Shown in pieces: positions 23,831-46,817 of a stretch of DNA of 64,000 nt. Position 1 is the first letter of the stretch, and each line of letters opens with the position of its first letter. Under the pieces are notes generated by a model. It did not search any database, was not told the origin of the DNA, and saw only the letters and a program-made list of their open reading frames with translations. A program made the translations under genes and the position numbers. Source of the stretch: Gemmatimonadota bacterium. GTDB taxonomy: Bacteria > Gemmatimonadota > Gemmatimonadetes > Gemmatimonadales > GWC2-71-9. The stretch is taken from positions 2,706 to 66,705 of the forward strand of contig JBDGXD010000002.1 in assembly GCA_039584755.1 (NCBI GenBank), given 5' to 3'.

Positions 23831-26800
23831 ATGCAACAGCGACCCACGATCACCTCGGTTCTCCGGCAGTTGAACACAACGCGGCAGCTGACTCTGCTGT
23901 TTCGACTCCTGGAATATCAACCCGATGATCGACCGTTTGGCGACCGCTGTCAGATCGTGGCTCGATGGAAGGGATTCGAGGTCATTGCGTTGGACAGTGC
24001 GAGGCCGCGAGATGAAGTGCGAGAATTGGCTCGCAGGCTCGCCGGCACCTCCTCTCGAGCACTGGCAGTAGCGGTAGATCCAGCACGAGAGCTGGCTCTT
24101 GCCGCACCTCGATTCGGCCAGCCCGGAACCACGAGGGTCTTGATCATCTCCCTCGAGTCGCCATCACCGTTCGCACTTCAACAGCTCGAACGACTGCGTC
24201 CGGCTCGATCTTCCAGCGCGCTGGGTCACGCGCTCCATGTAGCAGACGTCTTGAGCAGTGAAGAGGTGAGCGACCGATTCTTCACTGCATTTCGCGGGAT
24301 AATGGAGCGAATGGCCGCGTCATTGAGCAAGAACTGGTCAATGGCAGATCGACGCATGGTCACGTTGCTTGCGTTGAACCGCATTCTGTTCTTGTACTTC
24401 GTTCAGGCCAAGCATTGGCTCGATGGCCAGCCCGATTTCCTGTCACGGTTGCTCGATGATTCGCTCTCGTGCGGCGCGGACTTCCACCGCACGGCTCTCG
24501 AACCGCTCTTCTTCGGGACCCTGAACCGTGCACCCCAAGACAGGGAGCAATGCTGCAAATTCGGCGAGATTCCCTATTTGAACGGCGGTCTATTCGAGCC
24601 GCACACAGTAGAACGACGGCTCGGGTCTGTACACTTCTCCAACGAACTGTGGCGCGATGCATTCGACGGTGTCTTCGAACGGTTCAGATTCTGTATCAAT
24701 GAATACGATGAGGTAGACGCCATAGCACCAGACATGCTGGGACGAGCATTCGAGAGGTTGATGGACCATGCAGAGCGTCATGAGACAGGTACCTACTACA
24801 CACCGGAATCGATCGTTCGGCAAGTCGTGGAAGCTGCAATTGAGACTGCCCTGACAGCACACGTTTCCTCTGATGTGGCCCAATCACTCGTCAGGCGACG
24901 CGCACTAACAGCAAAGGATGCACGAGCGTGTCACACAGTTCTCAAGAGGTTGCGCATTCTGGACCCAGCCGTTGGGTCCGGAGCATTCTTGCTCGGTGCA
25001 CTCCAGTCGCTCACGGAGATGAGGTCCAAACTGGCACAACCACGACAAACAGGCAGTGGAGGGCAGCTGAGAAGGGAGATTCTTCAGGAAAACCTGATGG
25101 GAGTCGATCTCAATCCGATTGCAGTGCGACTTGCCGAGTTACGGCTCTGGCTCGCGGTGATAGCCGACGATGCAACCGATGACATTGGCAAGATCATGCC
25201 CTTGCCCAACCTGGATGGCGTCGTACGTCAAGGTGACACTCTGCTGGACCCACTCAGCGCAGCTCAGATGCTGAGTCCTGCCAGCCTCAACTTAGGGGGC
25301 CGCTCGGCGCTTTCAGTGAGTACGGCAAGACGAGCGTTGTTCGACGCGCGGGGCGAGGCTCTCTCGACCAATATGCGCAACCTACGAGCTGCCGAAACTT
25401 TGATGGCATACAGTGTTCTAGACCATGCGATGGAGAACACGGTCCAGGCTACGAACGATCTCGCCAGTGTGGCCCTCAGCAACGATCTGTTCGGCAAGCG
25501 GACCGGTTTGTCCGCCGCTCAGCGCCAGAGACATCGCGCGCTGAAGCGTGTGAGACAAGGTCTGCTGCTTGCTCGCAAGAAGATCACGGAAGGTGAGCTG
25601 CCGTTTTTTGCGTTCGAGGTGCATGCACCTGATATCATGGCGGACGGGGGTTTCGACATGGTGGTCGGGAATCCCCCGTGGGTACGTGCTGAGCGACTGC
25701 CGCTGAATCGGCGGCGCGCTCTACGCAAGCGATTCAGCTGGTGGCGTGGTGACCATGTACGCGGGTTCGCACATCTGCCTGACCTCTCTGTTGCGTTCCT
25801 ACAGCGTTGTCTCGAGTTGACGGCACCCGACGGTGCGGTCGGATTGCTATTGCCCAGCAAGATAACGTCAGCGGCATATGGCGAAACGGCAAGGCGGGCT
25901 CTCGTGAAAGAAACGTCTATTGCATACTTGAATCGCATTGCTGAAAAGGATGCTGCTCGGTTCAAGGCCACGACCTATCCACTGGCCGTTGTGGTTCAGA
26001 AGAAACGGCCGACTAGAGACCACGAGGTGAAGATCGCGTTTACAGAAGATCGCGCAGTCCTACAACGTCTGCTCGATGTTCCCGGATCGTGGATCATACT
26101 TCCGTCGAAAGCCCGCAACGCTATCGATGAGTTTCTTTCTGCCGGTGACTCGTTGGGTAGCATCTCGCCACCCATGTTGGGTGTGAAAACAGGCGCTAAT
26201 GACGTCTTTGTGGGTGAGTTGATCGACTCTCGTGGAGACAGCGCCGTGGTGAAGTTTGGCAATCACAAGACAATGGTCGAGCAGGCGTTACTGAGACCAG
26301 CCCTCCGAGGACGTGACATTCGTCCCTTCATGTCGACGAGCGTCCGTGTCATCCTGTGGACACATGACGGCTCCGGCAGGCCATTACGATCCCTACCGCG
26401 AAAAGCATCACGATACCTCGGTCAAAAGAACGAGCGCCTGCGCTCACGGCAAGACTACCAGAGCGGCCCGACCTGGACCGTCTTCCGGGTGGCCGGTGCG
26501 ATCTCCACCAATCGAGTGGTCTGGTCTGACATAGCACGTTATCCGCGCGCCGTGGCACTAGATGAAGTGAACGCTAGCACCGCAGTCCCACTGAACACGT
26601 GCTATGTAGCGGCCGCACCTGACAGGGAGGTGGCCCTGGCGATCGCAGCAACATTGAACTCAAGCTGGGCGCACGCCTTGTGCTTGGTGAGCGCCGACGA
26701 AGCACGAGGCGGTTACCGGCGTATCAATGCACGCCTCGCAGCTCAGATACCGATTCCTGCCGGCAGCGCTTCCCGTGAAGCACTTGCCGACTTGAGCCGA

Positions 26801-26920
26801 CGGGCTCACCAGCGAGAAGATGTCAACCAAGACCAAGTGGACGAGGCAGTGGCCGATGCCTTGGACCTATCAGGAGCAACCCGAAAAGTCCTCCGGTCTC
26901 TGGCCCCGCATCGAGGCTGA
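23831..26920 (+). CDS. N6-adenine DNA methyltransferase, gamma-class, Eco57I/PglX/type IIG-like with TaqI_C-like specificity domain
   Basis: 1029 aa. It has the helical N-terminal region with IPYLNGGLFE, YYTP, motif I ILDPAVGSGAFL (about 24.96 kb), motif IV NPPW (25670-25681), and a C-terminal region resembling TaqI-type target-recognition domains. I could not see a PD-(D/E)xK nuclease motif. Confidence 0.85.
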   Translation: MQQRPTITSVLRQLNTTRQLTLLFRLLEYQPDDRPFGDRCQIVARWKGFEVIALDSARPRDEVRELARRLAGTSSRALAVAVDPARELALAAPRFGQPGTTRVLIISLESPSPFALQQLERLRPARSSSALGHALHVADVLSSEEVSDRFFTAFRGIMERMAASLSKNWSMADRRMVTLLALNRILFLYFVQAKHWLDGQPDFLSRLLDDSLSCGADFHRTALEPLFFGTLNRAPQDREQCCKFGEIPYLNGGLFEPHTVERRLGSVHFSNELWRDAFDGVFERFRFCINEYDEVDAIAPDMLGRAFERLMDHAERHETGTYYTPESIVRQVVEAAIETALTAHVSSDVAQSLVRRRALTAKDARACHTVLKRLRILDPAVGSGAFLLGALQSLTEMRSKLAQPRQTGSGGQLRREILQENLMGVDLNPIAVRLAELRLWLAVIADDATDDIGKIMPLPNLDGVVRQGDTLLDPLSAAQMLSPASLNLGGRSALSVSTARRALFDARGEALSTNMRNLRAAETLMAYSVLDHAMENTVQATNDLASVALSNDLFGKRTGLSAAQRQRHRALKRVRQGLLLARKKITEGELPFFAFEVHAPDIMADGGFDMVVGNPPWVRAERLPLNRRRALRKRFSWWRGDHVRGFAHLPDLSVAFLQRCLELTAPDGAVGLLLPSKITSAAYGETARRALVKETSIAYLNRIAEKDAARFKATTYPLAVVVQKKRPTRDHEVKIAFTEDRAVLQRLLDVPGSWIILPSKARNAIDEFLSAGDSLGSISPPMLGVKTGANDVFVGELIDSRGDSAVVKFGNHKTMVEQALLRPALRGRDIRPFMSTSVRVILWTHDGSGRPLRSLPRKASRYLGQKNERLRSRQDYQSGPTWTVFRVAGAISTNRVVWSDIARYPRAVALDEVNASTAVPLNTCYVAAAPDREVALAIAATLNSSWAHALCLVSADEARGGYRRINARLAAQIPIPAGSASREALADLSRRAHQREDVNQDQVDEAVADALDLSGATRKVLRSLAPHRG

Positions 26921-29159
26921 ACAACTCCGCCGCGTTCGCGAACCACTGCGATGGTTGCTGGAGCTGGGCCGCCGCGAGGCCGCGACCGATGTTGAGCCGG
27001 TTCTCCGGAGGGCGGCACTCGGCCTGAGAGATGACCGGTGGAACCCACCGGAGTGGTTGCTTCCACATCAGGTGGACGCAGCACGTCGCGTGACACACAG
27101 CTTGCAGTCATTCGGCTTCGCGCTTCTAGCCGACGCGGTCGGACTCGGCAAAACCTACGTTGCCCTGGCCCTAGCGGCAGCCTACCGCAAGCCAGTCGCC
27201 GTGGTTCCGGCCGCGATTGTCTCACAGTGGCAGCGGGTCAGCGGCGAGGTTGGAATCGATTTAGCCATTCATACTCACGAGGCGATGAGCCGCGGGAGGC
27301 GAGCGCTTGGTGCCGACCTCATCATCACAGATGAAGCTCACCGATTCCGCAATCCCAACACGCGGCGTTACGACGTGCTCGCGCGCACAGTTGGGTGCTC
27401 GCATCTCCTGTTGCTTACTGCGACACCTGTGGTCAACGGCGCTGCCGATCTCGTGAACCTGACACGCCTCGCTCTAGCGGACAATGCATTCGCCATCTTC
27501 GGCTTGCCATCAATGGAGCGAGCTCTAAACGGTGGAGATCACCAACGGATAATGCACGCTTCCGCAGCGGTGATAACCGCGCGCGCGCCCAACAACATCC
27601 CCAGCCTTCACGAATCCCTACCCAAGGTGACAGACGAACCGGTACTGCGCCCGCCACCTGCAGCATACAGGAGAGTCACCGCCCTGCTACGCGCGGTAGA
27701 CAGACTCGAGTTCCCCAGCCTGAGTAACACTGCTGAGGCGGCCCTGCTCCGACTCCACTTGTTGTACAGACTCGCTTCCTCCACGGACGCGTGTCGTGAA
27801 ACAGTACTACGCCACCTGGTTTACATGGATCGGGCGATTGAAGCGGCCGACAGAGGTGAGACTCTGTCACGTGCGAAGGCTAGGCAGGTCTTCTCGTCTG
27901 AAGTTGAGCTAAAGCTAAACCTTCAGCAGTTCTCGCGGCTCGAGAACGTGGCTGACATACAGAAACTGCGAGAAGACCGTCATCGACTCGGACGATTGCT
28001 GCTCCTTCTCACCAGGATGAACGGTACAAGCCCAAAGACCATCGCACTCAAGCGACTCCTGACCAAGCGCACCAATCGCAAGACCATAGTATTCACTACC
28101 GCTCTCGCGACCGCACATATGCTCGCCCGGGCTATGGGCTGGCAACGGGTTGCTGTCGTCGGCTCTGGCCAGGCCTGGATTGCTTCTGGACGTTTGCCAG
28201 TGGAAGAAGCCCTGGCGTTGTTTGCTCCGGTGGCGCGTCGCGCACCCAATCCGCCAGCCTCTTCTGTAGTTCAAGTTCTGTTGGCAACAGACCTAGTCAG
28301 TGAGGGACTCGATCTGCAAGATGCTGATGCAGTTGTACACTACGATCTTCCCTGGACCCCGCTCAGGCTGCAACAGAGAGTTGGCCGTGTTGTGCGGTTG
28401 GGTTCGAGGCACGACGCAGTAGAGGTATCGTGGTTTGCTCCACCGAGTGCCATTGAGTGCAGACTCGCACTGGAAGCAAGAATCGCCGCAAAGGCAAGCT
28501 GCCAGCTCGATCTTCACGTTGCGATCACGTCGAGCGTCGGCAACGCACAAGTAATGAACCGCCTGCTGGAACAACGCGAAGCACTCGGCATGGCGCACAG
28601 CACCACGGCGCCGTCCGATCCTCGGCACGCAGTGGTCAAGGGTCCACAGATCGCGATAGTCGCGATACAATGGGAGTGGGGTAAGGCAAGCGGTACGGAA
28701 CTATTGGCAATGACCGGCGAACCCCCTCGACTGGTTGGCAGCTACGGAGAGATTGACATCCTCATCGGGCTGTTGAGTTCCTCACCCCGCACTCCCTCCC
28801 CTCCACCTGATGCGCTGTTGGCATGCCTCCTCCCCGTGGTGCGATGCCGCCTGGCTACGGCTGATCGGGGATCAACGAATCAAGCAACCCGGCGTCTGGC
28901 ACGCCATTTGGTTAGACGTGCCTACATTGCAGGCAAGAGGCGTGATGCCAAGTCTGTCAACATATGCGACGCCGTACTCGACCGCTTGAGGCACGGTGTC
29001 TCAGTTGGTGGCGAGCGCAGTTTGGAGGAGTTGTCACGCCTCGGAGGACCCCTAGGAGGCCTCAGCGACTGGCTCAAAGATCAACCAGAAAAAAAGGACG
29101 GTTGCCCCAAATTCACCATCGTGGCAGCCATGTTTGGCGACGGCACTGTAGCTGAGTGA
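26820..29159 (+). CDS. SNF2-family (SF2) helicase/translocase
   Basis: Motif I GLGKT (27141-27155), motif II DEAH (27330-27341), motif III LLLTATP, motif VI QQRVGRVVRLGS. About 250 aa at the C-terminus are uncharacterised. The 5' end overlaps the methyltransferase gene by 68-100 nt, depending on the start chosen. Confidence 0.85.
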   Translation: MSTKTKWTRQWPMPWTYQEQPEKSSGLWPRIEAEQLRRVREPLRWLLELGRREAATDVEPVLRRAALGLRDDRWNPPEWLLPHQVDAARRVTHSLQSFGFALLADAVGLGKTYVALALAAAYRKPVAVVPAAIVSQWQRVSGEVGIDLAIHTHEAMSRGRRALGADLIITDEAHRFRNPNTRRYDVLARTVGCSHLLLLTATPVVNGAADLVNLTRLALADNAFAIFGLPSMERALNGGDHQRIMHASAAVITARAPNNIPSLHESLPKVTDEPVLRPPPAAYRRVTALLRAVDRLEFPSLSNTAEAALLRLHLLYRLASSTDACRETVLRHLVYMDRAIEAADRGETLSRAKARQVFSSEVELKLNLQQFSRLENVADIQKLREDRHRLGRLLLLLTRMNGTSPKTIALKRLLTKRTNRKTIVFTTALATAHMLARAMGWQRVAVVGSGQAWIASGRLPVEEALALFAPVARRAPNPPASSVVQVLLATDLVSEGLDLQDADAVVHYDLPWTPLRLQQRVGRVVRLGSRHDAVEVSWFAPPSAIECRLALEARIAAKASCQLDLHVAITSSVGNAQVMNRLLEQREALGMAHSTTAPSDPRHAVVKGPQIAIVAIQWEWGKASGTELLAMTGEPPRLVGSYGEIDILIGLLSSSPRTPSPPPDALLACLLPVVRCRLATADRGSTNQATRRLARHLVRRAYIAGKRRDAKSVNICDAVLDRLRHGVSVGGERSLEELSRLGGPLGGLSDWLKDQPEKKDGCPKFTIVAAMFGDGTVAE

Positions 29160-31125: not shown

Positions 31126-31220
31126 CCGACACTAGATGCTGCAATCTTTGTCGCAGCAAATTTTATCCTGTAAAGCCTTGCAAATCAAGCAGATAAATGG
31201 CTGTCTTGCTTGAGTGTAAT

Positions 31221-31260
31221 TTCGGGTTATATTCGGTATAATGGCCGAACAAACGCCGAA
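31221..31260. promoter_or_regulatory. Candidate operator: TTCGG-N6-TTCGG-N8-CCGAA-N6-CCGAA, symmetric about a TATAAT box
   Basis: TTCGG at 31221 and 31232; CCGAA at 31245 and 31256; TATAAT at 31237-31242. It sits in the AT-rich divergent intergenic region between the Na/Pi transporter gene and the radical-SAM/imuB/dnaE2 operon. Confidence 0.45.
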
Positions 31261-31346
31261 TACGCAACCCCGCGGCGCAACCCTGGCAAGCTCCAGAAAA
31301 GCGGTGGAGCAAACCATTCTTTGGACATCTGCACGATGTCCGGAAT

Positions 31347-32429
31347 GTGGCGCAAGTGTTTACCCAGCTTCAGGTTGCTTTTTCTGTCCGACATGTGGAT
31401 GGGGTAAGTGTGGCTAGGGGCGGTGGATGGCAGGATGGACAGAAAACAATCTCGTTGATCGATCTCGACATCAAATCGATCATCAACCCGCCTGAGAGCA
31501 CCGGTATGGGTTTTTGGTCGATCAATCCCTACGTGGGATGCGAGCTCGGGTGCAGCTACTGCTATGCCAGGTATGCACATCGTTACGTGATGGAGCGAAC
31601 ACATGATGCTGGGCAGATATCGATCGAGGAGTTCAATCGGTTTAGGGAAACACAGAGTTGGGAAGGTTTCGAACGACAGATATTTGTAAAGCGACGTAGG
31701 TCTGTACTTATAGCACTGGAGCGTGATCTCGCGAAAATTCGCATGAAAAGCACCCGTAGCAGACCACATCCCATAGTCATTGGCACTGCCACGGACCCCT
31801 ACCAACCGGCAGAGCAACGTTTTCATATAACACGCGCCATACTCCGCAGATTGCTGGAGACTCGGGGCTTAACCATCAGCCTCATAACAAAGAGCCCTCG
31901 TGTCTGTCGCGACATCGAGTTGCTGCGCGAGCTTAGCGCTAGACATCGGCTGGTAGTGTACATCTCACTCATCAGCACCGACGTACGGATCATCAAGCAG
32001 TTCGAGGCACGTTCACCGATGCCTCATGCGAGGCTCGCTACGCTGCGGAAGTTTACCGACGTTGGTATCATCGCTGGGCTCAACGTAGCTCCTGTACTAC
32101 CTGGTATTACCGACTCTGCTTTTCAGATAGACTCTCTCATGGCGGCTGCGCGTGAAGCTTCTGCTACTTTTGTGCATCCTGCGGCACTTCAGTTCTTCCC
32201 CACAGTTCGAGATGGCTACTTGCCAATAGTCGAAAAGCACTTTCCCGATCTGGTTCCACGGTATCGTGTCGCTTACCGAGGCAACTGGGATGCCCCAACT
32301 GATTATGTAGCTGCGATCAGACGACGTTTCCAGCGTGCCGCCCGCAAGTACGGGCTGGACACTGATGATCCACTACAAATAGGAGAGCAACGCCAAGCGG
32401 AATGCGATGCACAGTTGAGTCTGCTATGA
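31347..32429 (+). CDS. Radical SAM protein, SplB/COG1533 'DNA repair photolyase'-like
   Basis: SINPYVGCELGCSYCYARY (CxxxCxxC at 31539-31562) plus the downstream TIM-barrel-like pattern typical of this family. The start is uncertain, with in-frame GTGs at 31395 and 31410. Confidence 0.85.
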   Translation: MAQVFTQLQVAFSVRHVDGVSVARGGGWQDGQKTISLIDLDIKSIINPPESTGMGFWSINPYVGCELGCSYCYARYAHRYVMERTHDAGQISIEEFNRFRETQSWEGFERQIFVKRRRSVLIALERDLAKIRMKSTRSRPHPIVIGTATDPYQPAEQRFHITRAILRRLLETRGLTISLITKSPRVCRDIELLRELSARHRLVVYISLISTDVRIIKQFEARSPMPHARLATLRKFTDVGIIAGLNVAPVLPGITDSAFQIDSLMAAAREASATFVHPAALQFFPTVRDGYLPIVEKHFPDLVPRYRVAYRGNWDAPTDYVAAIRRRFQRAARKYGLDTDDPLQIGEQRQAECDAQLSLL

Positions 32430-33886
32430 AACGGGCGGCAAGACTGTCTCGAGGTAAGACGGTACGAAACAGGGTAGCGTCTCACCGACGAACCAACTTA
32501 TCACCTTACCGCAGCGCAGGCGGCAGTACGAATCTCCAAAGCGAGTTGGCAGTTTGCATCTGGTTACCACTTTTCGCACTACGTTGCGAACAACAACGGC
32601 GGTCCGAGTTTACGAATGACCCCACTGCACTCCTCGCCGTGGAGGACGTACGCAGACTCTGGCAGGTATCCCCAACTGCACGCCGTGCAGGTGTCAAGGC
32701 AGGCATGACAGTGAGCCAAGCGGTTGGACTCTGTCCAGCTCTCTTACTCTGGGAACCTGATCCAGTGTACTATGACGTGCAATTTTCCAATTTGCTCCTC
32801 GAGCTGGGCAATGTAAGTCCGGTGATCGAGCCAGGAGAATTGGGTCAGCTGTATGTGGGGGTCGACGGATTGCAAAGACTCTATGGATCACCGGAAGATC
32901 AGATAGGCATGATCCAACACACAGTGACGGTGTGGCAGCGAAAGCTGGTGGCCGGAAGCCGGGAGTCAAGAGCGAATATCGCAAGGGATGGCTGGAAAAC
33001 GCGGAATAGGAAGTGGGAGTTACGCCTTTCTAAGGGTGACAAGGAAACGGAGCAAGCTGCACGTTTTTGCGTTTGCACCTTTGCACGTTTTGGATGGGGC
33101 CGCGGCAAGTTCACTGCCTGGGTAGCTGCCACGCGTGCTAATCCTGGTGAGGCGGTGATCGTCAGCGAGAAGGAGCGGGTGGGATTCCTTGCATCACAAC
33201 CGATTGCAGTATTGCCACTCGAGTCAGACACACACAGACGATTGTGGCGCCTTGGAATTAAAACGTTGAGTGACCTCGCCCAGTTGCCTGAAGCTGCTGT
33301 AGTGTCTCAATTCGGTAGGGTGGGACGCCGTTTGTGGTCGCTCGCTGCTGGCGCGGTGGTCGATCCTGTTGTCGGTAGGAAGACCCCTGAACCAATCATA
33401 GCCAAAGTCGATTTTTCCCATCCGGTAGCAGATCGTACAATGCTCTCGCATTCCCTCGACCGGCTGATCGAGCAAGCATTACGCCATCCCCAACGTGCCG
33501 GTTGGCGCATCCTCAAAGCTCAGGTATGCGCACGACAAGAGAACGGCACCTCCTGGGTGTCCAGCGCCACTCTCAATGATCCTTCGGCGGATCGGCGCCA
33601 CATAGCCGCTCCTCTGAAGATCCGACTCGAGCACGCGCAATTCGTGAAAGCGGTTGAAACCCTAGCAGTGGAATTCACGATGTTCGCCCGCGGCACCGAT
33701 GAGCTACAACTGTTTGCCCGTGACGCAAACAGCTCAGCTCGGGCAGGGCGCCAACGTGCGCTGCGCACTGCAGTACGCGAGATAAAGGCGAGGTACAGAC
33801 GTTCTGGTCTGTATCAGATAGTAGAGGTTCAACCACATTCGCGACTGCTCGAACGCCGTTATGCACTAATAGACTATGATCCATAA
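32426..33886 (+). CDS. imuB: ImuB-like Y-family DNA polymerase homolog (predicted catalytically inactive)
   Basis: Y-family fold pattern, but the N-terminus reads LAVCIWLPLFALRCEQ, with no DxD carboxylates. There is a possible clamp-binding-like ELQLF at 33701-33715. ATG 32426 overlaps the radical-SAM stop (ATGA), and the track start at 32402 is also possible. Confidence 0.8.
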   Translation: MKRAARLSRGKTVRNRVASHRRTNLSPYRSAGGSTNLQSELAVCIWLPLFALRCEQQRRSEFTNDPTALLAVEDVRRLWQVSPTARRAGVKAGMTVSQAVGLCPALLLWEPDPVYYDVQFSNLLLELGNVSPVIEPGELGQLYVGVDGLQRLYGSPEDQIGMIQHTVTVWQRKLVAGSRESRANIARDGWKTRNRKWELRLSKGDKETEQAARFCVCTFARFGWGRGKFTAWVAATRANPGEAVIVSEKERVGFLASQPIAVLPLESDTHRRLWRLGIKTLSDLAQLPEAAVVSQFGRVGRRLWSLAAGAVVDPVVGRKTPEPIIAKVDFSHPVADRTMLSHSLDRLIEQALRHPQRAGWRILKAQVCARQENGTSWVSSATLNDPSADRRHIAAPLKIRLEHAQFVKAVETLAVEFTMFARGTDELQLFARDANSSARAGRQRALRTAVREIKARYRRSGLYQIVEVQPHSRLLERRYALIDYDP

Positions 33887-34193
33887 TCAGCTGCACCCAC
33901 TCAATCTCCCACGGCGTGTACAGGTCCAGTTGAACAATGAGGGGCTGCCATTGGCTGTGGCAAGCGACTCCGTCCTATTACCTGGTTCGACGGTTGAGAA
34001 GCAATTGAGTGACGTGCCCAAAGACGACGTAAAATCGGTAGCCGCCATACTCGAGATCTGGCGTGTCGAGGACGAATGGTGGCGGCAGCCGATATCACGC
34101 CGCTATGTGGAGGTTGTTCTGCAGGGAGGACGTCATGTGGTGTTGTACGAAGATTTGGCTACGGGTGATTGGTTTATACAAAGATGCGATTAG
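33876..34193 (+). CDS. Small Trp-rich protein of the imuB-dnaE2 cassette (DUF6504-like by recollection)
   Basis: 105 aa. The motif ILEIWRVEDEWWRQPISRRYVEVVLQGGRHVVLYEDLATGDWFIQ is present. It overlaps the imuB 3' end by 11 nt and lies 56 nt upstream of dnaE2. Confidence 0.6.
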   Translation: MIHNQLHPLNLPRRVQVQLNNEGLPLAVASDSVLLPGSTVEKQLSDVPKDDVKSVAAILEIWRVEDEWWRQPISRRYVEVVLQGGRHVVLYEDLATGDWFIQRCD

Positions 34194-34249: not shown

Positions 34250-37200
34250 ATGTACATCGAACTCCACTGCCATTCCGCATTTTCGTTTCTTGACGGTGCC
34301 ACACCACCTGAGCAGCTGGTACTTCAAGCACACAACCTCGGTTATCCAGCCCTTGCGCTCACCGACCATAACGGTTTGTACGGCTCCATGGCTTTTGCCC
34401 AGTCAGCCACACAGATGGGCATTCAACCAATTACTGGCGCAGAAGTCACTCTGTTAGATCGCTCACATGTCACACTGTTAGCAGAAACATCTGAGGGCTA
34501 TGGTAACCTATGTCGCTTGATCACAGAGGCACATCTAGGTCGAGAAGACCGGCGTGACCCACGACTCGACTTCGCATCTTTGGAACGACTCCACGGCGGC
34601 ATTCTCATACTTTCTGGGTGTCGTGCCGGTTTACTACCGACGGTACTGCTCCGCGAGGGGTACACAGCCGCACGGAGATTGGCCGAGCGTTGTCGTCACG
34701 TTTTTGGACAGGATAGTTTTTTCATCGAGCTGCAGCGCAACTCGGTACGCGGTGATCGAGCACTCAACGCAGCGCTTTGCGATATAGCCGACACTACGGG
34801 CATTCAGGTTGTAGCTACTGGCAACGTGCATTACGACCAACCACAGCGGCATCGCCTTCACGATGCGTTAATTGCAATAAGACACCGCAGTACACTCGAT
34901 GCGTCCCACGAGGTGCGTCATTCAAACGCAGAATATTATCTGCGGTCCCCTGAGCACATGGCGACTCTATTTGCGGACCGGCCTGACGCTGTAGCAAATA
35001 CCAGGGCGATCGCTGAGCGATGTGCGTCGTTTGATCTGACGAGAGATCTGGGATACACATTTCCCGACTTCCGTGGAGCAGATCGATCGACTGCCCAACG
35101 GGCCCTTGCAGAACTCGCCGCTGTAAAGCTCGAGGAGATGTATCCACTCGACTCACCGCATCGCAGCGAAGCCGAAAGCCGGGTGAAGCAGGAGCTGAAA
35201 CTGATCGAGCAACATGGCTTGTGTGGTTTTTTCCTTGTTTATCGGGACCTGCTCGAGCTTGCCCATGAAGTTGCAACTGACGTGCGCAAAGGGTCACGTC
35301 GCATCAAAGGAAATTTGCTCCCGGGACGGGGCCGCGGTTCATCCGTTTCTTCAATCATCTGCTATTTCCTGGGTTTGTCACACATCGATCCCATTGCAAA
35401 TAATCTCTTCTTGGGACGATTTCTCAATGAGTCACTTACTTCGATTCCGGACATCGATCTCGATTTCCCCCGTGAGATCCGTGAGGAGCTGATCCGACGG
35501 GTCTATCAACGCTATGGTTCCGAACACGTCGGCCTCGTTTGTGCCTTTCCTACATACCATCTCCGCTCAGCAGTTCGCGAGCTCGGAAAAGCGCTGGATC
35601 TGCCGCAATCGGAATTGGAACAGGTCGTGCGGCTCGCGGGACACGGATCTGCCAAGAGTCTACGTGAGGAGCTGAAGAAGCTGCCCGCCTTCGCCGCCAG
35701 GGTCAATGCAACTCAATGGCGCAACCTGTGTGATTTGGCCGAGGACGTGGCGGAGTTGCCAAGACACATTTCACAGCATGTGGGAGGCATGATCATTTCG
35801 AGTCGCCCACTCGTTGAACTTGTTCCACTCGAACGTGCCGCCATGCCTGATCGCGTTATATGCCAGTGGGATAAGGATTCCTGCGATGATGCCCGTTTTG
35901 TCAAGATCGATTTTCTCGCACTCGGCATGCTTTCGCTCGTTGAAGAGTGCGTTGAACTGATAGCCCGGCGTGATGGGGAGCCCCCTGACCTGAGTCGCAT
36001 CGATTTCCACGACGCCTCGGTGTATGACCAGATCTGCACCGGTGATACTGTAGGAACTTTTCAGATCGAAAGTCGCGCCCAAATCCAGATGGTCCGACGC
36101 ACCCGGCCTCGTAGTCTCGAGGATCTCTGTGTGGAAGTCGCCATTGTCCGGCCTGGCCCAATCGTGGGTGGCGCGGTCAATCCTTTTGTTCGTCGACGCG
36201 AGGAGCAACGGCGCGCGCACTCGCGCAGCAAATCTTACCAACCACCCGTGGATCATCCACTGCTCAAAGAGGTGCTCGCGGAAACCCTAGGAGTCATTGT
36301 TTATCAAGATCAAGTGCTGCAGGTATGTCAGGCACTAGCTGGTTTCACCGCCGGACAAGCAGAAGCGCTGCGCCGGGCAATGAGTCGACGTCGCTCGCGG
36401 GAACTCATGGAAGGCTTTTGGCAGGAGTTCCGCGAGGGCGCTGCGCGACGTGGCGTAGCAGAAGACACTGCCCAGCGTGTCTTTACTCAGGTTGTGGCGT
36501 TTTCCGAGTTCGGCTTCCCTAAATCGCACGCGGCCGCATTTGGCCTTCTGGCGTACCAATCAACCTGGCTACGGCACTATTACCCCGTCCAGTACTATGC
36601 GGCACTCTATAATAATCAACCAATGGGTTTCTATTCGCTGGATGCTCTCGGGCGTGATGCGAATCGGCACGACGTAGAGATTAGGCTGCCCGACATCAAT
36701 CGTAGCGACGTTCACTGTGTGGTTGACGAGAATGCAGTACGAGTGGGATTTGCATTTCTACGCGACTGGGGCCGCGATGTTGCAGAACAAACGGTGCTCG
36801 AACGTGAAGTAAACGGACCTTACCGAAGTCTGGCCGACTTCGTGCGGCGGGCACCATCACGATTGTCCCGTGATGCAATTGAAAATCTGGCTTGGGTGGG
36901 TGGCTGCGATTGTTTTGGCCTGACCAGACGTGAGCTACTCTGGCAAGTTGGACTGTGGCTACCACCTAAGACCGCGCAGCCGGACGGTAAGCGAGTGCGG
37001 CGTCAGTTGGAGCTGCCGTTCAATCACCCATATGAAGATCTCCGGTTCACCGACGTACCGGCCGATCAACGGCTCCTGTCGGAGTACCAGATGTTGGGCT
37101 TTGCCGCGAGTGGTCACCCTTTCACGCTTCTGACTCGCAGCCTTCCACAGGGCATAGTGAGTAGTGATAGGCTCGTGCATATGGAACATGAAGCTGAGAT

Positions 37201-37534
37201 ACAAGTAGCCGGACTGGTCGTCGCACGACAGCGGCCCGTCACCGCGAAGGGTTTCACGTTCATCCTACTGGAGGATCAAGCGGGTATGATGAACGCCATT
37301 GTCAGACCAGATGTATACGAACGAGACCGTGTCACCATCCGCGGTGAACCACTAGTGTGGATTATCGGTAAGCTGGCAAAAGATGACGGCACTGTGAACG
37401 TGATTGCTGAACAAGTGCGGGCTCTGGAAGTGCGATCACAGAATGTACCCAAAATCCTATCTGCATCACGATCACCGAGTGCATTTCTCAAGGATCTACG
37501 GCGCACGGCTCCAGGTTCTAGAAACTGGGGCTAA
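34250..37534 (+). CDS. dnaE2: Error-prone DNA polymerase III alpha-like subunit DnaE2 (ImuC)
   Basis: 1094 aa. N-terminal PHP domain MYIELHCHSAFSFLDGA ... LALTDHNGLYG, then the Pol III alpha core and a C-terminal OB region. The length and the imuB neighbour are typical of DnaE2. Confidence 0.9.
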   Translation: MYIELHCHSAFSFLDGATPPEQLVLQAHNLGYPALALTDHNGLYGSMAFAQSATQMGIQPITGAEVTLLDRSHVTLLAETSEGYGNLCRLITEAHLGREDRRDPRLDFASLERLHGGILILSGCRAGLLPTVLLREGYTAARRLAERCRHVFGQDSFFIELQRNSVRGDRALNAALCDIADTTGIQVVATGNVHYDQPQRHRLHDALIAIRHRSTLDASHEVRHSNAEYYLRSPEHMATLFADRPDAVANTRAIAERCASFDLTRDLGYTFPDFRGADRSTAQRALAELAAVKLEEMYPLDSPHRSEAESRVKQELKLIEQHGLCGFFLVYRDLLELAHEVATDVRKGSRRIKGNLLPGRGRGSSVSSIICYFLGLSHIDPIANNLFLGRFLNESLTSIPDIDLDFPREIREELIRRVYQRYGSEHVGLVCAFPTYHLRSAVRELGKALDLPQSELEQVVRLAGHGSAKSLREELKKLPAFAARVNATQWRNLCDLAEDVAELPRHISQHVGGMIISSRPLVELVPLERAAMPDRVICQWDKDSCDDARFVKIDFLALGMLSLVEECVELIARRDGEPPDLSRIDFHDASVYDQICTGDTVGTFQIESRAQIQMVRRTRPRSLEDLCVEVAIVRPGPIVGGAVNPFVRRREEQRRAHSRSKSYQPPVDHPLLKEVLAETLGVIVYQDQVLQVCQALAGFTAGQAEALRRAMSRRRSRELMEGFWQEFREGAARRGVAEDTAQRVFTQVVAFSEFGFPKSHAAAFGLLAYQSTWLRHYYPVQYYAALYNNQPMGFYSLDALGRDANRHDVEIRLPDINRSDVHCVVDENAVRVGFAFLRDWGRDVAEQTVLEREVNGPYRSLADFVRRAPSRLSRDAIENLAWVGGCDCFGLTRRELLWQVGLWLPPKTAQPDGKRVRRQLELPFNHPYEDLRFTDVPADQRLLSEYQMLGFAASGHPFTLLTRSLPQGIVSSDRLVHMEHEAEIQVAGLVVARQRPVTAKGFTFILLEDQAGMMNAIVRPDVYERDRVTIRGEPLVWIIGKLAKDDGTVNVIAEQVRALEVRSQNVPKILSASRSPSAFLKDLRRTAPGSRNWG

Positions 37535-45512: not shown

Positions 45513-46817
45513 GTGACAGACGAAAACAAGCCTCACTCCGAAAAACCCAAGACCGAAAGCAAGGGCATCAAGCTCCACACCCAGATTCTCATCGGACTGC
45601 TCCTGGGCGCATTGCTCGGGCCAGTCATGGGGAATGCGGCGCTCTGGATCAAGCCCATCGGCGACGCGTTCATCAATCTCCTGATCATGATTGTCGTGCC
45701 GCTCGTGATGGCCTCACTCATAGTAGGTACCGCCAGTCTCGGTAACCTCAGGAAGCTTGGCCGAATCGGGCTGAAGACGGTGGGCTATTACCTGGTCGCC
45801 ACTGCAATCGCCGTCTCATTCGGATTGGCTGCCGGCAAGGCATTCAATCCGGGCGCCGGAATGGATGAGGATGTGAAGGCTCGCATGATGACGGACTATG
45901 CCGGCGTTACCGAACAGCAACTGGAACGAGTAGCCGAGAAGCCGAGCCTGTCTGAGTTCCTGGTCAACATTGTGCCCCGCAATCCATTCAGGGCGATGGT
46001 CGAGACGAACTTCCTGCAGATCATCTTCTTTGCCCTGCTGTTCGGCATATCACTCACTATCCTGCCAGAGGAGCGTCGCAAACCGGTCGTCAACCTTCTC
46101 CAGTCCATAAACGACGCGATGATAGTGCTGGTGAAGATGGTCATGAGGATCGCACCGCTTGGTGTGTTCGCCCTCATTGCTGCCGTCGCGGCACAATTCG
46201 GCTACGGTGTTCTGCTGACCCTGCTGAAATACGTAGTCGTCACGATCGGGACGATGATCGCCTTTGTCGCGATCGTATACCCGATCTCGCTCCGTCTGTC
46301 GGGCATGTCGCCGGTTTACTTCTTCAAGAAGTACTACGAGGTCGCGCTGTTTGCTTTCTCGACTTCGTCCAGCAACGCCACTCTACCGATCAACATTCAG
46401 GTCTCGAAAGAGGACCTGGGTGTATCGAATGACGTGGCCTCGTTTGTGCTGCCACTGGGCGCCACCATCAATATGAATGGGACTGCCATCTACCAGGGAG
46501 TGAGTACCATCTTCATCGCTCAGGTGTTCGGCATGACGCTGGGCATACAGGATCTCATCATCGTCGTTTTGACCGCGACGCTGGCGTCAATCGGTGCTGC
46601 GGGCGTGCCGGGCATTGGCATGGTAACGCTCACAATCGTGCTGCAACAGATCGGAATCCCCGTAGAGGGTATTGCCCTAGTGGTGGGAGTCGAACGGATA
46701 CTGGACATGACTCGTACTGCTGTGAACGTAACCGGTGACACTACCTGTGCTGTATGGGTGGCAAAGACGGAAGGGGAGTTGAACACACCGCAGGAGTCGG
46801 AGGGGGCGGCAGCCTAG
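45513..46817 (+). CDS. Dicarboxylate/amino acid:cation symporter (canonical DAACS, GltP/GltT-like)
   Basis: 434 aa with the canonical motifs SSSNATLP (HP1), NMNGTAIYQG (NMDGT-like) and DMTRTAVNVTGD. Confidence 0.9.
   Translation: MTDENKPHSEKPKTESKGIKLHTQILIGLLLGALLGPVMGNAALWIKPIGDAFINLLIMIVVPLVMASLIVGTASLGNLRKLGRIGLKTVGYYLVATAIAVSFGLAAGKAFNPGAGMDEDVKARMMTDYAGVTEQQLERVAEKPSLSEFLVNIVPRNPFRAMVETNFLQIIFFALLFGISLTILPEERRKPVVNLLQSINDAMIVLVKMVMRIAPLGVFALIAAVAAQFGYGVLLTLLKYVVVTIGTMIAFVAIVYPISLRLSGMSPVYFFKKYYEVALFAFSTSSSNATLPINIQVSKEDLGVSNDVASFVLPLGATINMNGTAIYQGVSTIFIAQVFGMTLGIQDLIIVVLTATLASIGAAGVPGIGMVTLTIVLQQIGIPVEGIALVVGVERILDMTRTAVNVTGDTTCAVWVAKTEGELNTPQESEGAAA

Follow-up and report, generated by a model that had tools for sequence, protein, structure and literature searches.

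What is the function of a symmetric sequence element placed between a phosphate-transport operon and a divergent mutagenic-repair operon, and which protein is likely to bind it? The question arises from the window (the whole 64-kb stretch of Gemmatimonadota DNA analysed here), in which Na/Pi symporter and PhoU genes lie on the minus strand and genes for a radical SAM (rSAM) protein, an ImuB-like protein and DnaE2 lie on the plus strand. The original prediction had described an AT-rich region between these operons, carrying TTCGG and CCGAA repeats, and had offered two readings: a non-canonical LexA-type SOS operator covering a -10 hexamer, or a PhoB/OmpR-type site serving the phosphate genes. 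Both the flanking genes and the base composition were found as described, with a GC content of 0.40-0.44 around the element vs ~0.54 nearby.

A composite of two inverted 16-bp sites

Read directly from the window, positions 31221-31260 are TTCGGgttataTTCGGtataatggCCGAAcaaacgCCGAA. TTCGG occurs at 31221 and 31232, an 11-bp period, and CCGAA at 31245 and 31256 with equal spacing; the centre of symmetry (31240.5) falls within the hexamer TATAAT (31237-31242). Repeats, periodicity, mirrored spacing and dyad axis are all as originally claimed. The element consists of inverted copies of a single 16-bp site, both TTCGG-N6-TTCGG with a T/A-rich spacer. The first, O1, is TTCGGGTTATATTCGG (31221-31236, plus strand), overlapping the spacer and -10 of a candidate promoter; the second, O2, is TTCGGCGTTTGTTCGG (31245-31260, minus strand; CCGAACAAACGCCGAA when read on the plus strand), spanning codons 2-7 of a small open reading frame (ORF). 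The 64-kb window contains just two exact copies of TTCGG-N6-TTCGG, both belonging to this element.

To gauge the four-fold symmetry, arrangements of any pentamer with direct spacing of 0-10 and a gap of 0-20 were counted in simulated sequence. A first-order Markov model predicted 0.035 such arrangements per window, with at least one in 14 of 400 simulations. Since the real window holds three, including two within ORFs (at 23999 and 46244), this null model is too simple, and the four-fold symmetry by itself is only moderately significant. The two additional arrangements, GCGAG-N3-GCGAG-N18-CTCGC-N3-CTCGC (23999-24046) and GATCG-N7-GATCG-N9-CGATC-N7-CGATC (46244-46286), lie in long ORFs and are probably compositional. 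A chance origin of the O1/O2 element is ruled out by its conservation across related loci, as seen from invariant cores in nine orthologous regions and a ~40-fold enrichment of the site.

Conservation and distribution of the site

Thousands of relatives of the rSAM protein were identified, and the DNA around 160 of them was fetched from genome and metagenome collections; the loci of three further relatives, beyond the 160, were obtained through exact protein match. The extended gene order of the window is common to metagenomic relatives, and a core comprising NaPi-PhoU and the divergent rSAM-imuB-orf105-dnaE2 genes is common to the window and three assemblies labelled Gemmatimonadota, which probably places the source of the window in this phylum or in a close sister group. 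The element is present, nearly unchanged, in every relative of 59-75% rSAM identity with usable upstream DNA; a relative of 95% identity lay outside this comparison, its upstream DNA being too short. Comparison of orthologous intergenic regions, suggested in the original prediction as a check, revealed invariant columns, the operator cores included, in an alignment of nine regions (A2): TTG at 31206-31208, TTCG, TAT.TT.GG, ATG, C.GAA and CC.AA, with variable flanks.

Beyond these close relatives, 134 perfect ten-base cores were identified in 1.23 Mb of related loci, vs ~3.5 in resampled sequence, almost all of them in promoters of Gemmatimonadota rSAM (SplB/Rv2578c-like), imuA, imuB and dnaE2 operons. 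In 79 Gemmatimonadota-type loci, the 450 nt preceding the rSAM gene contain at least one site with no more than one core mismatch. Many loci possess a single site only; the inverted O1/O2 pair was found in 22, the window included, at start-to-start distances of 24 bp (10 loci), 26 bp (6), 25 bp (2), 19 bp (2), 23 bp and 28 bp. The four-fold layout is, in other words, a recurrent composite of two 16-bp sites. Where imuB-orf105-dnaE2 is separate from the rSAM gene, extra perfect sites precede it (L004-L018, L089, L090 and L111). Further perfect sites precede imuA-type genes (L040, L056 and L058), a Y-family polymerase gene (L027) and dnaE2 (L041). This distribution is the pattern of a regulon motif.

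The specificity of the motif is illustrated by the cultured Gemmatirosa kalamazoonensis: in 732 kb of its plasmid 2, perfect sites whose spacer contains A/T number only two, one of them ~125 nt upstream of the rSAM gene of this species. The other (NZ_CP007130.1, 576460) stands 21 nt before the start codon of a VOC/glyoxalase-like gene, its family judged by eye, which may be a further member of the regulon.

Loci from Acidobacteriota were found to carry a variant, GCGAA-N6-GCGAA (TTCGC-N6-TTCGC), differing from the Gemmatimonadota site at one position per pentamer and located ~200-440 nt upstream of the rSAM match (L074-L080 and L093-L135). This variant often occurs twice, 33 bp apart, with one copy before TTGACA and one filling the spacer ahead of TATAnT. 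CTGT-N8-ACAG palindromes beside the acidobacterial sites were considered as LexA boxes and rejected: their centres are mostly GC-rich and, among those read, a T-run follows in L135 and L106, giving them the appearance of terminators of the upstream gene. A different palindrome was observed in Gemmatimonadales, where four imuB promoters (L006 at 7690, L009 at 7704, L012 at 7241 and L015 at 6979) carry the operator TTCGGGATATATTCGG with the short palindrome GTCCCnTTGGGAC directly after it.

Promoter architecture and the predicted start site

The original prediction had taken TATAAT (31237-31242) as the -10 hexamer, which is probably wrong. The hexamer is composed of TATA and the first two bases of an ATG (31241-31243), and its counterparts in relatives read GTTAAT, ACATAT, GACAAT or TATTAT while the ATG is invariant. 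The hexamer that is conserved is TATATT (31228-31233, plus strand), which lies within O1 and is kept in close relatives, apart from one substitution (TATCTT) in L003. We infer from this conservation that TATATT is the -10 and that TTGCTT (31206-31211, plus strand), 16 nt away and beginning with the TTG that is invariant in A2, is the -35. A simple sigma-70 scan of the region reported zero plus-strand promoters, TTGCTT not being among its output.

A consistent arrangement emerges from the 82 plus-oriented perfect sites in related loci, in which a TTG begins either 15-17 nt or 7 nt before the site. In the first register, that of the window, TATATT comes from the spacer of the site and lies 16-18 nt past the -35; in the second, it is the interval between -35 and -10 that the site occupies, with TATnnT next. 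The site is thus a 16-bp bipartite one with pentamers 11 bp apart that overlaps the inferred -10 or occupies the -35/-10 spacer, dimensions within those of LexA operators (about 14-20 bp, with half-sites 9-12 bp centre to centre). TATA-type spacers occur only in gene-facing sites, those in reverse orientation being of TTTG type, which fits a double role of the plus-oriented sites as -10 elements. Of 66 promoter-embedded sites scanned, 65 had an ORF opening with ATG or GTG, and in 23 of these 65 the start codon lies 6-11 nt past the hexamer; the transcripts of these 23 are therefore probably leaderless.

On the minus strand, the sigma-70 scan matched a conserved promoter-like block, TTGATT-17-TAAAAT (31160-31188), which is clear of O1 and O2 and is probably the promoter of the divergent NaPi-PhoU operon. 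Its form in relatives is TTGnnT-17-TAAGAT, and in L001-L003 the block contains short inverted repeats with arms that differ by lineage (GTTTGA..TCAAAC; ATGTTGTT..AACAACAT).

Genes of the mutagenesis operon

The operon opens with a small ORF for 58 amino acids (31241-31417, plus strand), absent from the annotation of the NCBI record, which encodes a zinc ribbon and ends in CPECG-x10-CFFCPTCGWGKCG at its stop codon. Searches with tblastn identified it in 34 loci. Differences in its last 30 codons are distributed over the three codon positions as 325:233:906, a bias which indicates a real gene. It had zero matches in the protein collection. Its product matches model NF006417 (E 1.3e-7), at the C-terminal Zn finger of class II (B12-dependent) ribonucleotide reductase. 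We predict that the ORF is read from a leaderless mRNA and, because it lies directly upstream of the gene for a radical SAM enzyme, a role of its product as redox partner of that enzyme is conceivable. Where O2 overlaps the ORF, it is constrained as DNA and not as protein: third-position bias is absent from the first seven codons (84:67:106), codon 2 is GCC, ACC, CCC or TCC across relatives, and O2-type sites in other loci fall in a different reading frame or upstream of the ATG. The zinc-ribbon protein was also considered as the regulator itself and rejected, since it is missing from many motif-bearing loci and the motif is likewise found ahead of imuA and imuB operons lacking its gene.

The rSAM gene (31410-32429, plus strand) encodes a protein of the SplB-like / Rv2578c / PA0069 family. 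Its start is uncertain: a GTG at 31410 overlaps the stop of the small ORF, and the gene call of the database record begins at 31356. The C-terminus of the protein (32415-32429) is a nearly invariant QLSLL in alignment A1, resembling the beta-clamp-binding motif QL[SD]LF; if this motif is real, the rSAM enzyme would be tied physically to the replisome or mutasome. Downstream, homology and locus comparison identify an ImuB-like inactive Y-family polymerase (32402-33886, plus strand). It is followed by orf105, a conserved ORF of 105 amino acids found in the same place, between imuB and dnaE2, in 19 loci (33876-34193, plus strand). The latter overlaps the imuB stop by 11 nt, contains WRVEDEWW, and had zero Pfam or NCBIfam matches and no detectable similarity to the ImuB of the window. 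Given that the cassette lacks imuA, orf105 may represent the missing accessory subunit or a detached C-terminal module of ImuB. The error-prone polymerase DnaE2 (34250-37534, plus strand) is encoded by the final gene of the operon.

A probable SOS operator

The site covers the -10 or the promoter spacer, with a second site just inside the transcript, which is the layout of a repressor operator. Together with the distribution of the motif, this makes it very probable that the element is the repressor operator of a DNA-damage/mutagenesis regulon. As for the binder, LexA is the most likely candidate, and we regard it as the probable one, since it classically controls genes of this set and since canonical LexA boxes are found at orthologous rSAM genes elsewhere. 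Of the LexA-type SOS operator originally proposed, then, a regulatory operator on the rSAM-imuB-dnaE2 promoter fits the distribution across the phylum and stands; the placement of its -10 at TATAAT probably does not.

The explanation that we favour overall, and consider reasonably probable, is a composite operator that blocks the promoter of the mutagenesis operon and is most likely controlled by LexA. O1 would take in the -10 TATATT, together with the last part of the spacer separating it from the -35, in a sigma-70-type promoter, whose transcript would start at or beside the ATG at 31241 and hence be leaderless, with O2 covering roughly +5 to +20. A dimeric repressor on each site would keep RNA polymerase away from the promoter. 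Once DNA is damaged, LexA would cleave itself under stimulation by RecA, leaving the promoter free and so turning on the mutagenic repair cassette, the controlled operon comprising the zinc-ribbon ORF, rSAM, imuB, orf105 and dnaE2.

Evidence for LexA comes from the identity of the regulated genes, the sites being located upstream of rSAM, imuA, imuB and dnaE2 operons in ~80 loci, and from the observation that orthologous rSAM genes elsewhere carry the LexA box of their own clade. Among the other loci fetched, these canonical boxes are CTGTATGGATATACAG in L140 and CTGTTTAATTAAACAG in L129 and L130 (CTGT-N8-ACAG with AT-rich centres), as well as GTTCTTGTTATGTTC and GTTCGCATATTGTTC, GTTC-N7-GTTC being present at the rSAM genes of L137 and L147. 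In keeping with this, Mycobacterium tuberculosis LexA was found bound at Rv2578c/Rv2579 by ChIP-seq (PMC3381160), and SplB-type rSAM proteins have been reported as SOS-regulated in several phyla (PMC8565304; PMC7739468; PMC3765255), sharing predicted SOS networks with DinB homologues and genes for the alpha subunit of Pol III (PMC8565304; PMC7739468). A direct-repeat LexA box of the same 11-bp period, GTTC-N7-GTTC, is also known (PMC8565304).

Within the element itself there are zero exact matches to the canonical boxes CTGT-N8-ACAG, CGAAC-N4-GTTCG and GTTC-N7-GTTC, as had been stated originally, nor does the motif correspond exactly to any other published LexA box, its conserved positions being those of TTCGG and not GTTC. 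One near-match, GAAC-N7-GAAT (31247-31261), is a single mismatch away from the alphaproteobacterial box; such near-matches number 55 in the window vs 52.8 expected, a chance frequency. Searches for the regulator covered several collections. Queries from Escherichia coli and Bacillus subtilis (tblastn, phmmer) identified no LexA, UmuD or RecA genes in the window or the 160 loci, the only matches being to ImuA-like proteins of RecA fold, nor were genes of these three types found in the 732 kb of G. kalamazoonensis plasmid 2 or an SOS regulator in a 10-kb extension of the window's contig on one side. A synthetic consensus LexA matched only Firmicutes, Actinobacteria and Armatimonadota in a collection of 5.8 billion proteins, and zero Gemmatimonadota or Acidobacteriota records were among the matches listed when it was compared with plasmids. 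A LexA profile identified 80 loci in viral contigs, of which 0 had the motif upstream.

Alternative explanations

An alternative that we consider unlikely, though it survives better than any other, is a dedicated repressor other than LexA (an XRE-S24 'non-canonical LexA', a WYL-type or a DdrO-like protein) that controls mutagenesis and rSAM genes only. Consistent with such a specialised regulator, all genes seen downstream of the motif form one functional module (rSAM, imuA, imuB and dnaE2), the DNA covered holding none of the core SOS genes lexA, recA and uvrA, and damage regulators other than LexA provide a precedent in other phyla (PMC8565304; PMC10693628). However, zero candidate regulator genes are conserved next to the regulated operons in ~160 loci. 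The canonical LexA boxes on orthologous rSAM genes likewise argue for LexA, as does the 11-bp distance between half-sites, which is the geometry of known direct-repeat LexA boxes.

We find it very improbable that the TTCGG blocks are instead promoter elements recognised by an alternative sigma factor. The fixed distances between TTG and the plus-oriented sites, their TATA-type spacer and a similar TTG-N-TTCGGnnTATATTCGG arrangement in some phage contigs would fit such a role, but the pentamers are 11 bp apart, unlike a -35/-10 spacing, and occur in two different registers relative to TTG. Further, reverse-oriented copies such as O2 lie beyond the start codon or start site, and the Acidobacteriota site is found both before the -35 and inside the spacer.

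Pairing of TTCGG with CCGAA into an RNA or DNA hairpin, acting as an attenuator or as a structure in the 5' transcript, is less credible still. The region does fold, modestly, at -15.6 kcal/mol (z = -2.46 vs shuffles), but the arms are invariant where covariation would be expected of a structure, a single half is all that most loci possess, the predicted start site places the left arm outside the RNA, and there were zero Rfam matches.

Least credible of all is the PhoB/OmpR-type site of the original prediction, by which the element would control the divergent Na/Pi transporter-PhoU operon: direct repeats of 11-bp period, shared with the Pho box bound by PhoB, and a phosphate operon adjoining the element in the window and its nearer relatives are in its favour, but the motif tracks repair genes in ~80 loci, has no association with phosphate genes across loci (NaPi/PhoU neighbours occur in 9 of 160, all close relatives of the window or of L001-L003, plus the three relatives fetched later), is found ahead of imuA, imuB and dnaE2 operons that have no phosphate gene nearby, and leaves the predicted NaPi promoter (31160-31188, minus strand) clear. 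The sequence of the element bears no resemblance to the Pho box consensus. Since the synteny of NaPi-PhoU with the divergent rSAM operon is kept in a subset of loci, the operators may nonetheless influence the phosphate operon to some degree.

Relationship to known LexA boxes

Returning to the preferred reading, a LexA-controlled operator, the closest parallel is the alphaproteobacterial box GTTC-N7-GTTC, which likewise consists of short direct-repeat half-sites with an 11-bp period and a TTC core, and is found on SOS promoters including those of imuA-imuB-dnaE2 and rSAM genes. The parallel extends to promoter layout: in L147 the alpha-type box GTTCGCATATTGTTC is followed at once by TATACT, just as TTCGGGATATATTCGG is followed by TATAAT. 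The two differ in that a G precedes TTC in the alphaproteobacterial box (GTTC) whereas here GG follows it (TTCGG), in lineage, the present element being from Gemmatimonadota, and in the frequent occurrence here of two sites as an inverted pair.

The Gram-positive/Actinobacterial (Cheo) box CGAAC-N4-GTTCG shares the half-site core TTCG/CGAA and, in Actinobacteria, controls imuA'-imuB-dnaE2 as well as Rv2578c, the orthologue of the rSAM gene (PMC3381160). It is, however, a palindrome with 4-bp spacing, while the half-sites here are repeated directly with 6 bp between them, and in the inner TTCGG-N8-CCGAA pair of the element the order of half-sites is reversed relative to it. Direct-repeat LexA boxes in Balneolaeota (TTACACATATTTTWTACATA) and Patescibacteria are precedents for the evolution of direct-repeat recognition by LexA in several lineages, among them the group to which Gemmatimonadota belongs, and at the heart of their regulons, too, are translesion polymerases together with a radical SAM protein (PMC7739468). 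Those boxes are unrelated in sequence and were validated by EMSA, whereas the present site is a candidate defined by sequence conservation.

The 16-bp site is most likely the SOS (LexA) box of Gemmatimonadota, a phylum for which none seems to have been described. As a fuller proposal, which we put forward tentatively and with some doubt, TTCGG-N6-TTCGG would be the LexA box of Gemmatimonadota and TTCGC-N6-TTCGC its counterpart in Acidobacteriota; in part of the phylum the box would be present as an inverted pair around a leaderless promoter, the first product of which would be a zinc-ribbon peptide akin to the redox tail found in class II ribonucleotide reductase. The literature searched yielded no account of this motif, or of any LexA box in Gemmatimonadota or Acidobacteriota; some key older papers lie beyond that search and an earlier description among them is possible.

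For most major phyla the SOS box has been determined, one phylum at a time, and each made the damage regulon of its phylum readable from genomes. A defined 16-bp motif would similarly render SOS/mutagenesis regulons predictable in genomes and metagenome-assembled genomes of both phyla. If the assignment is true, it adds a further independent direct-repeat SOS box, in two major soil phyla, and another case in which LexA, or a substitute, has evolved direct-repeat recognition. It also draws attention to a conserved small gene at the head of the mutagenesis operon that current annotation misses. A repressor box on SOS promoters is a well-known kind of system, and the finding extends this known picture without establishing a new principle.

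Observations on neighbouring genes and phage contigs

Beside the phosphate genes (23831-29159, plus strand), a gene for an MmeI/Eco57I-type methyltransferase-nuclease is followed by one for an SNF2-family helicase with weak similarity to DISARM DrmD and to DpdE. The pair, which looks like a defence module, also adjoins PhoU in relatives L298 and L301, and L300 keeps the methyltransferase gene only.

A scan of viral contigs for the motif returned mostly random matches. Its matches include two sets of GC-rich phage contigs (L162/L164/L204/L231 and L168/L179/L202/L272) with cTTGnc-N10-TTCGGnnTATATTCGG, the same -35/operator/-10 layout, standing ahead of structural or terminase-like genes; a further viral contig, L205, carries a cluster of TCTTCGG repeats. 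The phage contigs with this layout may derive from Gemmatimonadota phages wired to the same regulator.
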